In this document: positions 14,539 to 17,130 of the stretch, piece after piece
Position numbering within the stretch: the first letter of the stretch is position 1
Layout: the number at the start of each line of letters is the position of its first letter
Assembly (NCBI GenBank): GCA_964450605.1
Contig: CAYVEK010000001.1
Span: 8,430 to 72,429 of the forward strand
Length of the DNA: 64,000 bases
Direction of reading: 5' to 3'
Origin: an uncultured Candidatus Saccharibacteria bacterium
GTDB taxonomy: Bacteria > Patescibacteriota > Minisyncoccia > Phycocordibacterales > CAIZLB01
Translations under genes and position numbers: made by a program
The notes under the pieces: generated by a model
Databases searched by the model: none
The model's input: the letters and a program-made list of their open reading frames with translations, nothing else
Told to the model about the DNA's origin: nothing

Positions 14539-15435
14539 CTATTGTATCATTAGTTTAATACTTTTTTGTAATAGGTCTGTATCCGATATATCGAGCCAGT
14601 GTATGGATTTGTTCTTCCTAAACCAAGTTCTTTGTCTCTTGGCATAGTGCCATATGGCGTAGAAAAGTTGTTCTTTGAACTGTTCAAGGGTTATTTCTTT
14701 TTGTAGATACTTTGACGTATATGCATATTCTAAGCCAAGTTGCTGCATACGTTCGTAAGTAAGTATTCCTTGTTGCAAGAGTTGTTCAGATTCCTCGATC
14801 ATACCTTGTTCTAGACGACGATCTATACGTTTTTTTATTTTATCTTTTAATACATCATCAGCTCCATCAAGACCTATATATACAACGTCATATATATCTT
14901 TTTTTTCGAGTGGTGGTATGGAACCTAGTTCTGTAAGTATTTCTATTGCACGAATTATCTTTCTTTTATTTTTCAGATCGACGTTGTGAGGCTGTTCTTT
15001 ATTTAGTTTTTTAAATATACTTAATAACTCCTCTGTATTTTTTGTCTCGAGTTCCGTGCGCAGTGTTTGGTTTATAGGTACGTCGGGGAAGTGTATATCA
15101 TGAACAATACTGTCTATATATAAGCCAGTACCTCCGCAGAGTATAGGGATATTGCCTCGGCTATAAATATCGTCTATGACTTTCTTTGAATCTTTGATAA
15201 AGAAATCTGCAGTATATGTTTGATCAGGGTTTACAGTATCAAGCATATGATGAGGTACACCATGCATCTCTTCGCTGGTTATTTTTCCTGTACCTAAGTC
15301 TAATTTTTTGTATATCTGTCGAGAGTCGGTTGATAGTATCTCAGCATTGCCTAGATGCAGAGCTAAAGCAACGGCTAGGTCACTTTTTCCTGTGGCAGTT
15401 GGTCCGCATATAACTATCATCTTTGGTTTTTGCAT
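14539..15435 (-). CDS. miaA: tRNA dimethylallyltransferase
   Basis: P-loop ICGPTATGKS at N-terminus and overall MiaA similarity (TDSRQIYKKLDLGTGK). Confidence 0.85.
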   Translation of the reverse strand: MQKPKMIVICGPTATGKSDLAVALALHLGNAEILSTDSRQIYKKLDLGTGKITSEEMHGVPHHMLDTVNPDQTYTADFFIKDSKKVIDDIYSRGNIPILCGGTGLYIDSIVHDIHFPDVPINQTLRTELETKNTEELLSIFKKLNKEQPHNVDLKNKRKIIRAIEILTELGSIPPLEKKDIYDVVYIGLDGADDVLKDKIKKRIDRRLEQGMIEESEQLLQQGILTYERMQQLGLEYAYTSKYLQKEITLEQFKEQLFYAIWHYAKRQRTWFRKNKSIHWLDISDTDLLQKSIKLMIQ

Positions 15436-15559
15436 TGTTTAGAGAATAGCACAGATTATACAAATTACGATACTTTTTTGAGTGTTTGGGAAGTGGAAAG
15501 TAAAGGTGTTTGGGTGGATTATTATAGTGAGGGTTATGTAGCCCTTTGCTCTATGCTTA

Positions 15560-15777
15560 GAATCCGCCAACTCTACTTCACTTTCAAGTGGTGGTGGACG
15601 TTTCGGACAAAAAGAGTGCCGGTAAAGCCTCTTCAATCTGAAGCTGTCCACTCCACCTCTCAAGATGAGGGATACGTTCAACTGGAGCTTTTTTAAGGCT
15701 TCTCGGCCCGCCGGAGAAAGGCTCAAAACCTGGTCAAACCCATGTTCAGAGCCTCCTCCGGAGGGTTTTTCTTTTTG
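15560..15777 (+). ncRNA. candidate structured non-coding RNA (identity unresolved) ending in a terminator-like hairpin
   Basis: Plus-strand segment lying between two minus-strand genes; long-range helix GGUGGUGGAC (15590-15599) / GUCCACUCCACC (15646-15657); small hairpins; hairpin CCGGAGAAAGGCUC...GAGCCUCCUCCGG then UUUUUCUUUUU (15711-15777); locally elevated GC. Confidence 0.3.
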
Positions 15778-15821
15778 CAGAGACTTGGTCCTTACAGGGC
15801 CAGTACACTAGGCTTTTTGTT

Positions 15822-15905
15822 TGGTGCCGGAGAAGAGACTTGAACTCTTACGGGTTGCCCCGCGCGATTTTGAGTCGCGTGCGTCTACCATTCCGCCACT
15901 CCGGC
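15822..15905 (-). tRNA. tRNA-Leu (anticodon CAA), class II with long variable arm, CCA encoded
   Basis: Reverse complement reads GCCGGAGTGGCGGAATGGTAGACGCACGCGACTCAAAATCGCGCGGGGCAACCCGTAAGAGTTCAAGTCTCTTCTCCGGCACCA; anticodon loop CUCAAAA; T-arm AAGAG-TTCAAGT-CTCTT; 7-bp acceptor stem. Confidence 0.85.
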
Positions 15906-15928
15906 TTACGTGCTATACTATAGCATAT

Positions 15929-16552
15929 ATGAAAAAACGTTCAATCCTCATCCTTGTACTCCTCATCCTTGTTGCCGGAGGTGTAACTTTCTATGTTAAA
16001 AATAAGACTACACATCATTTCATAGATAGTAGTATTACAAGTTCTGATGCTGCAATAAAAGCTTTTATCGAAATGATGATTCCTCATCATCAGGAGGCTG
16101 TTAGAACTTCAGAGCAGGTCTTAGCTGATAAAAGCATAGAAAATTTTGATCTACGAATTATCGCTGGACGTATAGTAGATGCTCAGACTTTTGAGATCAT
16201 ACAAATGATCAGTTGGTACGAAGATTGGTTTAAGATGGAGTACGATATAACAGGTATGTCGCACACTCATCACTATATGCCTATGATGAATACTGCAAGT
16301 ACAACAGGTGTGGTTCTTGAGAAAAACTATGTTAAAGGTATGATAAAACATCACAAAATGGCTATTGAGATGGCTCGAGAACTCATAGCGGCTTTTGATA
16401 AATATGAGGGAAGTAAAACTATCGGTGATGGAGATTTGGTTATACATGAATCTCATCCAAACATAGATACTATACGTCAGTTTGCACAGAAGATTATTGA
16501 TGTACAAAGCAAAGAAATTGAACAATTGTCCAGCTTGAAGTTTGACAGATAG
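15929..16552 (+). CDS. DUF305-family protein (four-helix-bundle, His-rich), N-terminal membrane anchor
   Basis: Repeated MIPHHQEA / MIKHHKMAIEMA motifs typical of DUF305; the track ORF 15821 is trimmed to ATG 15929 because its 5' part overlaps the tRNA. Confidence 0.6.
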   Translation: MKKRSILILVLLILVAGGVTFYVKNKTTHHFIDSSITSSDAAIKAFIEMMIPHHQEAVRTSEQVLADKSIENFDLRIIAGRIVDAQTFEIIQMISWYEDWFKMEYDITGMSHTHHYMPMMNTASTTGVVLEKNYVKGMIKHHKMAIEMARELIAAFDKYEGSKTIGDGDLVIHESHPNIDTIRQFAQKIIDVQSKEIEQLSSLKFDR

Positions 16553-16569
16553 TGCTATAATAGAAGAGT

Positions 16570-16725
16570 CTCCCAATTATAGTTGGCTTAACAATTTTTT
16601 TAAGGGAGGCCGTCGTAGAGGAAAGCTGAGGCTTTCATCTCGGGTCACCCACCTGAGTTTATCTTAGGTCCAACTCCATTGGGAGGCTTCAAGGCGAGTT
16701 AGTTTACTGACTCTTCTTGAAGCCT
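16570..16725 (+). promoter_or_regulatory. GC-rich structured 5' leader (candidate riboswitch or attenuator) upstream of the VanZ-like gene
   Basis: Closing helix CUCCCAAU (16570-77) / AUUGGGAG (16678-85); internal hairpin GAAAGC-UGAG-GCUUUC; 9-bp helix GGCUUCAAG (16685-93) / CUUGAAGCC (16716-24) ending 2 nt before the ATG at 16726. Confidence 0.3.
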
Positions 16726-17130
16726 ATGGTAGACAGATACAATTACAAAAAGATATTGACTGTCGCTTTTATAACACTATTTTTTATTTTAGGTATAAAT
16801 GAGTTAGCTGTAGATTATCATATATATTTTATATATAAATGGTTTGATACACCCATGCATTTTTTAGGAGGATTTGGTGTAGGTATACTGTGTATCGGTT
16901 TACTTAGATTTTTTCTTAATAAAGAAAAGTATGATTCAAAAAAAACTTTCTGGTATGCAGTACTAGGTGTTTTTGCAATAGGTGTTGTTTGGGAACTAGT
17001 TGAAGTTTTTTATAAAGTCTCTGTTATTTTTGGTGGAGTATTTTGGTTTGATACAATAAAAGATTTGCTTATGGATGTATTTGGTGGAATACTTAGTTAT
17101 ATATGTTTCCGTCATCGCTTAAAAAAATAA
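16726..17130 (+). CDS. small polytopic membrane protein, VanZ-like (tentative)
   Basis: 4 predicted TM segments; WELVEVF...D...DLLMDVFGGILSY resembles VanZ-family motifs; the track starts at TTG 16717. Confidence 0.45.
   Translation: MVDRYNYKKILTVAFITLFFILGINELAVDYHIYFIYKWFDTPMHFLGGFGVGILCIGLLRFFLNKEKYDSKKTFWYAVLGVFAIGVVWELVEVFYKVSVIFGGVFWFDTIKDLLMDVFGGILSYICFRHRLKK

Follow-up and report, generated by a model that had tools for sequence, protein, structure and literature searches.

The window analyzed here, a stretch of 64,000 nucleotides (nt) from an uncultured Candidatus Saccharibacteria bacterium (contig CAYVEK010000001.1), has a gap of 386 bp (15436-15821) between miaA (14539..15435, minus strand) and a tRNA-Leu(CAA) gene (15822..15905, minus strand). 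On comparison with the syntenic loci of relatives, this gap probably contains an unannotated small protein gene on the plus strand that lies in a recombining, hypervariable slot and has a strongly folded mRNA ending in a long intrinsic terminator. An initial annotation, which put the size of the gap at about 380 bp, had proposed a structured RNA candidate. The plus strand, the non-random fold and the terminator were borne out, whereas the non-coding identity was not, and the stretch is most likely not a stand-alone structured RNA.

Syntenic contigs of related Saccharibacteria (designated below by L numbers) were fetched via the homologues of MiaA and DUF305; the MiaA of the window has its best genome match in a metagenome-assembled genome assigned to Candidatus Saccharibacteria. 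The relatives keep the gene order miaA / gap / tRNA-Leu / DUF305 / DUF2238 / beta-CASP nuclease, and the section from miaA via the slot and tRNA-Leu to DUF305 was recovered in L001, L081, L082, L083, L092 and L093. The first 60-85 nt beside miaA are conserved and the remaining gap differs from relative to relative. The layout, read on the equivalent of the plus strand, is common to all of them and consists of an A/T box, a short hairpin (absent in L082), an open reading frame (ORF) that starts with ATG and has 38-100 codons, and a terminator hairpin with its U-tract.

In the window this ORF starts at an internal ATG and extends over 15553..15696 (plus strand), with 47 codons plus TAA that encode MLRIRQLYFTFKWWWTFRTKRVPVKPLQSEAVHSTSQDEGYVQLELF (beginning with MLRIRQLYFTFKWWWTFR). 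Both ORFs named in the initial annotation (15430..15696 on the plus and 15439..15726 on the minus strand) exist, and both had been considered composition-driven. That view does not fit the relatives. The ATG ORF is uninterrupted in L081, where 42 of the 47 residues are identical (89% at the amino acid (aa) level, for a MiaA that is 88% identical), while the minus-strand ORF is interrupted there. The 12 nucleotide changes between the two versions fall on codon positions 1, 2 and 3 in the ratio 1/4/7, and the five indels all lie in the parts of the gap that flank the ORF, none within it. Moreover, a diverged homologue, MKKIVQYFLIRLKWWWTFRLTKTRVQNTHLEEPVVSSTTSPVGEQLEFQFS, is found in L094/L095 (BLASTP, 37% local identity, E value 2e-6). 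A global alignment with L094 gives 21 identical residues out of 46, seven of which are specified by different codons (e.g. TTT/TTC, CGG/AGG, AGA/CGG), at an overall DNA identity of 71% and with differences distributed 20/16/27 over the codon positions. The spacing between the DNA anchors that the two have in common (ATG, AAGTGGTGGTGGACGTT, CCACCTCTC and CTGGAG) differs by 3, 9 and -6 nt, all multiples of three. A protein-coding homologue of one of the small ORFs had been named beforehand as the finding that would speak against a structured RNA, and the sequences of L094/L095 and L081 essentially provide it.

The other alleles point in the same direction. The slot ORFs of the sister pair L086 and L087 have 57% aa identity, a 6-nt indel and differences distributed 21/20/37, and those of L093 and L082 are 50% identical (E value 2e-6). 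Summed over the window/L081, window/L094 and L086/L087 comparisons the counts amount to 42/40/71 (chi-square p ~0.003, our own arithmetic). A plus-strand ATG ORF that runs from the upstream hairpin to the terminator is present in eight independent alleles (window, L094, L093, L082, L083, L001, L086 and L092), and in nine out of 10 alleles its frame obtains the top score on genome codon usage. The length of the slot ORF exceeds that in 98.6-99.9% of dinucleotide shuffles per allele (99.5% for the window; combined p 3e-11), p-values that are flattered by the fact that the shuffled stretches were delimited from the ORFs themselves. Each of these comparative arguments is modest, yet jointly they make a fairly strong case for coding.

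Besides the flattered p-values, several observations weigh against a protein gene. The codon-position counts of the family to which the window, L081 and L094 belong (the KWWW family, after a motif of the product) are marginal when taken alone (21/20/34, p ~0.09), and the family comprises only the three sequences found. In the window/L094 pair, a good alignment is likewise obtained for the antisense frame (score 65, versus 71 for the ORF frame), as conserved DNA patches dominate the alignment. The G+C content (GC) at third codon positions (GC3) of the ORF is 0.51, against a genome mean of 0.275. The ORF was not called by gene finders in the window, L081 or L094, and its product is absent from a collection of 15 billion proteins. 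No match for the small ORFs was obtained in Pfam, NCBIfam, PHROGs or PADLOC, and a HMMER search against 1.84 billion representatives returned only one spurious translation of a tandem repeat. Finally, the leader of the ORF would be ~20 nt long, unlike the mostly leaderless genes of this genome. A Shine-Dalgarno motif precedes none of the 36 long genes of the window, and in most of these a TAnAAT-like box, frequently preceded by TG, ends 6-10 nt ahead of the ATG, a pattern that implies leaderless or near-leaderless mRNAs genome-wide. Because none of the 36 long genes carries a Shine-Dalgarno motif, the missing ribosome-binding site of the small ORF is uninformative. In the literature on small RNAs and small proteins of Saccharibacteria and on leaderless translation in the candidate phyla radiation (CPR) we found nothing relevant.

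The ORF stops 8 nt ahead of a 63-nt hairpin with 23 base pairs (15705-15767; -35 kcal/mol, z score -4.8), which is followed by a U-tract (15766-15776). Together these form an intrinsic terminator (15705..15776, plus strand): a GC-rich stem-loop and then a U-tract on the transcribed strand, flagged as such by the plus-strand terminator scan. Its core reads CCTGGTCAAACCCATGTT. The hairpin described earlier, CCGGAGAAAGGCUC...GAGCCUCCUCCGG (CCGGAG...CUCCGG) followed by UUUUUCUUUUU, lies within it. All terminator base pairs are identical in the window, L081 and L093, and the differences (four in L093, one in L081) are confined to bulges and internal loops. On the minus strand there is no U-tract after the terminator hairpin, nor after any other hairpin in the gap.

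The message upstream of the terminator is strongly folded as well. The whole gap has a predicted folding energy of -135.3 kcal/mol on the plus strand (z -4.46) and of -110.3 kcal/mol on the minus strand (z -2.72), in line with the earlier assignment of the structured unit to the plus strand, and the GC is locally elevated as claimed (0.44-0.54 over 15500-15800 versus 0.38 in the whole window). The long-range helix, the CCGGAG hairpin and the small hairpins (CUUCA-AUC-UGAAG; AGGGU...GCCCU) of the initial annotation are all present. More specifically, the long-range helix GGUGGUGGAC/GUCCAC(UC)CACC, with GUCCACUCCACC as the partner in the 3' arm, constitutes the outer part of a 69-nt hairpin inside the ORF (15588..15656, plus strand; -32.8 kcal/mol, z -5.5, equalled by 0 of 200 shuffles). 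This outer helix pairs the codons AAG UGG UGG UGG ACG (KWWWT) with GUC CAC UCC ACC (VHST), and thus has the three Trp codons UGGUGGUGG (UGG UGG UGG, 15589-15597) face C-ending Ser, Thr and His codons. In L094 the outer helix is a perfect 11 bp, formed with UCG UCC ACC ACC (SSTT), and the inner stem that it encloses has another sequence. At the GC3 of this genome, successive C-ending Ser/Thr codons are out of the ordinary.

The 15 substitutions that separate the window from L081 mostly spare paired positions: 11 fall on unpaired positions, which make up 30% of all positions (p 0.0008), and with a fold limited to the transcript the numbers are 10 of 15 versus 39% (p 0.03). Within 15588..15656 the changes are restricted to three loop positions and one G-U to A-U replacement. 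Over the whole comparison, none of the 75 pairs shows a double-sided change, and two changes at paired sites convert G-U to A-U or G-C. The alignment between the window and L094 is too poor to place the inner helices, and the 5' arm of the outer helix is invariant. Taken together, selection probably acts on the hairpin as RNA in addition to its coding function, even with no double-sided covariation between the window and L081.

These properties could also belong to an independent non-coding RNA of about 250 nt, structured and with functional hairpins and an ORF that is a mere by-product of GC-rich, stop-poor sequence. The strength of the fold, which reaches a z score of -7.0 for the whole unit of L094, the invariant pairs of the 3' hairpin, the sparing of paired positions by substitutions, the raised GC in an AT-rich genome, the atypical GC3 and the failure of gene finders to call the ORF all suit this explanation, which we nevertheless consider unlikely. 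Across 29% DNA divergence the ORF is retained, with length changes that all keep the frame and with codons that differ synonymously, and double-sided covariation is absent from every helix. In addition, strong folding is limited to the KWWW family, i.e. the window, L081 (ORF body z -4.4) and L094. The ORF bodies of L093, L082, L083, L001, L086, L087 and L092 have z scores between -1.8 and +1.5 and hence are unstructured, yet these alleles bear ORFs with third-position bias. Because these other ORF bodies are unstructured, the conserved property of the whole locus cannot be RNA structure. The close strain L093 has swapped the whole body and retains only the terminator.

No known RNA family accounts for the stretch either. 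The Rfam 15 scan yielded only the tRNA-Leu, both at the gathering threshold for the window and at E<=10 for the gap, where the best match (17.6 bits) was to a microRNA model. The weak resemblances to RNase P CR-II and to helix 8 of the signal recognition particle (SRP) RNA seen earlier found no support, as no match to RNase P, SRP, transfer-messenger RNA (tmRNA) or 6S RNA was obtained in the gap at E<=10. An RNase P CR-I-like string, GGAGAAAGGCUC, was dropped since it had no model match. A tmRNA was likewise rejected: neither ARAGORN nor Rfam called one in the gap, the tmRNA-like strings UUUCGGAC, GGUCAAACCCA and CUCCACC occur in the wrong order, and there is no T-loop (CUUCA-AUC-UGAAG has a 3-nt loop). 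What the gap has in common with these housekeeping RNAs is a high GC and stable folding in an AT-rich genome, together with its place beside a tRNA. It differs from them in lacking a covariance-model match and a T-loop and in being confined to one allele family. An integron cassette, with the long hairpin as attC site, was discarded by eye because R' and R'' boxes are missing and there is a single cassette.

With the small protein gene as the preferred reading, the signals around the ORF can be considered. The part of the gap adjoining miaA (15436..15519) is conserved and would act as a divergent control region for miaA as well as for the small gene. An extended -10 box on its minus strand, TGCTATTCT, may be the miaA promoter, given that it lies 9 nt ahead of the miaA ATG; further blocks are AAATTACGATACTTTTT and GGGAAGTGG. 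The blocks of this region are retained in the window, L081, L089, L093, L001 and L092, and all sequence downstream varies. Directly next to it lies an A/T-rich, -10-like box, TATTATAGT (15520..15528, plus strand), a candidate promoter element of the plus-strand unit. It was not called by the sigma-70 scan. An equivalent box is found 2-6 nt ahead of the hairpin in every allele (e.g. TATACTATAT in L094, GATTAAAGT in L093, TATTATATATAA in L083 and CATTATGTA in L001). The hairpin itself is in the window the stem-loop GAGGGUU-AUGU-AGCCCUU (15529..15546, plus strand; -7.8 kcal/mol, z -1.9, weak alone), and hairpins of other sequence occupy the equivalent position in L094, L093/L089, L083, L001 and L092. 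It would form the 5' end of the transcript or lie close to it, and the site of transcription start determines whether it is inside the RNA or not. Transcription of the small gene would then start from the box at ~15520-15528, proceed through the stem-loop and the ORF to the terminator hairpin and U-tract, and converge with that of the tRNA-Leu gene. The latter (called by ARAGORN and by Rfam with 58.1 bits) forms the conserved right-hand anchor of the slot, and its promoter (15944-15917) is the only promoter-like site that the scan found on the minus strand, with none inside the gap. The hairpin within the ORF would either stabilise the message or throttle its translation.

The predicted product has a Trp- and Arg-rich N-terminal segment, RIRQLYFTFKWWWTFRTKR, which is aromatic and basic, and an acidic tail; a tryptic peptide of the 47-aa protein would be VPVKPLQSEAVHSTSQDEGYVQLELF. 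A single-sequence AlphaFold2 model has a helix over residues 3-20 (predicted local distance difference test score, pLDDT, ~76) and a disordered acidic tail, with a mean pLDDT of 64. As it holds R3, R5, K12, R18 and K20, the predicted helix would be amphipathic rather than membrane-spanning. The N-terminal segment presumably resembles Trp/Arg-rich membrane-active peptides, and the model suggests a peptide that might bind to the membrane surface or to a protein.

Such a peptide could in principle be part of a type I toxin-antitoxin-like module or of a dual-function RNA, in which the folded mRNA limits the synthesis of the Trp/Arg-rich peptide and an antisense RNA, conjectured to arise by read-through from the tRNA-Leu gene, represses it. 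Like the toxin mRNAs hok, tisB, aapA and similar ones, the unit has a very small ORF in a highly structured message (exceptionally so in both diverged KWWW alleles), is intergenic and adjacent to a tRNA, and faces a convergent transcript that could act as antisense, considering that the tRNA-Leu gene is without a terminator of its own. Unlike them, the unit encodes a predicted helix that is probably too polar, with its five basic residues, to be a hydrophobic transmembrane segment, and the predicted folds leave the region around the AUG (15547-15585) unpaired, with no visible occlusion of initiation. The promoter scan of the gap shows no dedicated antisense promoter, the unit is single-copy, PADLOC reports nothing, and the sister alleles are acidic and proline-rich, devoid of Trp codons and not toxin-like. 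We therefore judge a toxin module to be improbable.

The comparison of the alleles provides an indication of recombination. In the window, a KWWW ORF is combined with a terminator of type A. The same combination occurs in L081 (DNA identity to the window of 85.2% for miaA and 75.2% for DUF305), whose slot is 94% identical. In contrast, L093, which is closer in its flanks (miaA 93.5%, DUF305 98.2%), has the type A terminator behind an acidic, Pro-rich ORF, MGDEEPEYELDGDLPPLLPPPPKEDEVPKPPSNHPELF, that is unrelated to that of the window. L094 (DUF305 78.9%; miaA not on the contig) combines a KWWW ORF with a terminator of type B, and L082 (miaA 74.3%, DUF305 77.1%) an acidic, Pro-rich ORF with type B. 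That all four combinations of ORF and terminator type are observed indicates recombination at the slot. All four ORFs end in the motif [PL]-E-[LF], which hints at a common origin. The alleles of this fast-evolving small protein would be exchanged by homologous recombination between two anchors, the miaA promoter and the tRNA-Leu gene.

The likeness between the window and L081 should be viewed in this light. The gap is 91-99% identical between them versus ~80% for the flanking genes, and the tract of high identity extends from about codon 75 of miaA to the tRNA, thereby covering miaA codons 1-75. Within the tract, the silent-site differences in miaA per identical codon amount to 0.12-0.19, compared to 0.22-0.48 elsewhere. 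A recent recombination tract explains most of the high identity. The conservation of the gap with respect to L081 was thus dropped as proof of a selected RNA, since the tract reaches into miaA and the closer strain L093 has a different insert. Sequence patterns for the locus are AAGTGGTGGTGGAC and, for the anchor, ATTACGATACTTTTT-N(8-11)-GGGAAG. DNA pattern scans for further copies gave none in viral contigs or in Joint Genome Institute (JGI) metagenomes, collections from which the lineage is evidently missing. The slot ORF of L001 (2552..2863, minus strand) encodes 100 aa, with a long acidic and Gly-rich region and then a Cys-rich tail, GDGCGECTHCTG. It is reminiscent of a ribosomal peptide precursor, and a search of the protein collection returned only the protein itself and one relative with 81% identity.

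Among unannotated bacterial small-protein genes (ORFs of <50 codons between a promoter and an intrinsic terminator of their own) the gene of the window would fit with its independent ATG ORF of 47 codons, its terminator, its escape from gene finders and its restriction to close relatives. It would stand apart by the fold of the message (z -4.5 to -7), a GC3 of about twice the genome mean and the allele-swapping slot. The slot could, at a stretch, be a polymorphic small-peptide locus, in which Trp/Arg-rich KWWW, acidic Pro-rich ELxGDLPP and other types are swapped between lineages and are maintained by the action of the peptides in interactions specific to each strain (recognition between epibiont and host, discrimination of self from non-self, or toxicity, for instance); this remains a doubtful extension of the small-gene reading. 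Pherotype loci such as comC and agrD are polymorphic peptide loci with divergent alleles between conserved flanks, and the slot resembles them in those respects as well as in the discordance between allele and flank phylogeny and in recombination. It differs from them in that no processing, export or sensor gene is adjacent and the peptide has no signal or leader motif, and a signalling role is pure conjecture based on analogy. If the slot were such a polymorphic locus, the KWWW hairpin would act as a built-in translational brake on a membrane-active peptide, and the unit would be both a regulatory RNA and a coding gene. Independently of that reading, the slot may point to diversifying selection acting on the small peptides of obligate epibionts, for which few host-interaction factors are known.

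Whatever the role of the peptide, an intergenic island of an AT-rich CPR genome that is GC-rich, folds well and adjoins a tRNA looks like a non-coding RNA, and here the comparative evidence favours a small protein gene that is missing from automatic annotation as well as from the large protein collection. The slot lies between two universally conserved anchors, miaA and tRNA-Leu, is compact and easily amplified, and could serve as a strain marker. The overlapping constraints in the KWWW alleles, where the codons of the Trp run pair with C-ending Ser/Thr codons, may help to study the co-evolution of coding and RNA structure. The finding does not touch upon a long-standing open question.

The position beside a tRNA raises the alternative of a decaying remnant, a pseudogene or the leftover of an integration at tRNA-Leu, that has no function and resembles L081 only by virtue of recent recombination. 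The slot does hold a 30-nt remnant, AGAGACTTGGTCCTTACAGGGCCAGTACAC (15779..15808, assigned to neither strand), that is a partial direct repeat of the T-arm and variable-arm region in the 3' half of the adjacent tRNA-Leu: 18 of 22 positions align to 15833-15854, a score equalled in 3 of 5000 shuffles (p ~0.001). The swapping of content between close strains and the tract that extends into miaA agree with such a remnant too, as do some DNA patches that the window has in common with L001 and L089 and that are read in other frames. It is very unlikely all the same, considering that the ORF is intact in three sequences, one of which is at 71% DNA identity, that indels avoid the ORF, and that the hairpins and the terminator are fully preserved. 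A frameshifted pseudogene of the L001/L089 genes, suggested by the similarity of LSSGGGRF to LSPGGDLF in another frame, was dropped after full-length homology to L094 was found in the ATG frame.

The 30-nt remnant matches the 5' arm of a more extensive, Y-shaped element, of which complete copies, on the minus strand in each case, are found in L001 (~2370-2460), L083 (~2483-2573) and L085 (~2845-2988). The window and L093 retain only the first 30 nt, in L093 in degraded form, and L081 and L082 lack the element. In this element, two hairpins of which the sequence varies among the relatives are enclosed by a conserved closing helix, AGAGACUUG/CAAGUCUC(U). Between L001 and L083 there are four double-sided compensatory pairs, and the copy of L085 folds with a z score of -4.45. 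Every pair is Watson-Crick, which leaves the strand ambiguous. The element may have been left behind by an integration event at the tRNA, or may represent a small mobile element with inverted repeats or an uncharacterised RNA.

The last alternative, a Trp-sensing leader peptide with attenuator, shares with the trp-type leaders the tandem Trp codons (the WWW motif being retained in L081 and L094) in a short ORF just before an intrinsic terminator, but it is effectively refuted because the gene order leaves no regulated gene downstream (the convergent tRNA-Leu gene is followed by DUF305 with a promoter-like box of its own), and 32 codons follow the Trp run, the sister alleles have no Trp codons and the folds show no evident anti-terminator pairing.

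The neighbourhood of the slot offers some further observations. The mechanically called ORF of DUF305 (15821..16552, plus strand) would start with a TTG inside the antisense of tRNA-Leu and encode 243 aa. Translation almost certainly begins instead at the ATG at 15929 (MKKRSIL...). Over-extended forms of 242 and 256 aa occur in public sets (P0126, P0128 and the gene call of L081), which makes this a recurrent annotation error. Between DUF305 and DUF2238, the region 16553-16716 (core 16581-16675, plus strand) has a GC of 0.53 and is 91-99% identical to L081, versus ~75-80% for the flanking genes. It has a sub-threshold match to the Rfam 6S RNA model (16.9 bits, E value 0.16), and the syntenic spot of L083 (1548-1673) scores 25.9 bits. 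By its sequence, it is likely a divergent 6S RNA gene that stays below the Rfam gathering score of 46.4. At the junction of DUF2238 and the beta-CASP nuclease gene (overlap 17103-17130), positions 17000-17100 are 97% identical to L081, versus 68-84% for the neighbours, which could reflect overlapping start and stop signals or another recombination patch. Finally, one of the 35 long genes included in the codon statistics has a GC3 of 0.61 and a GC of 0.53, compared to 0.275 and 0.38 for the genome, and may be a recent acquisition.

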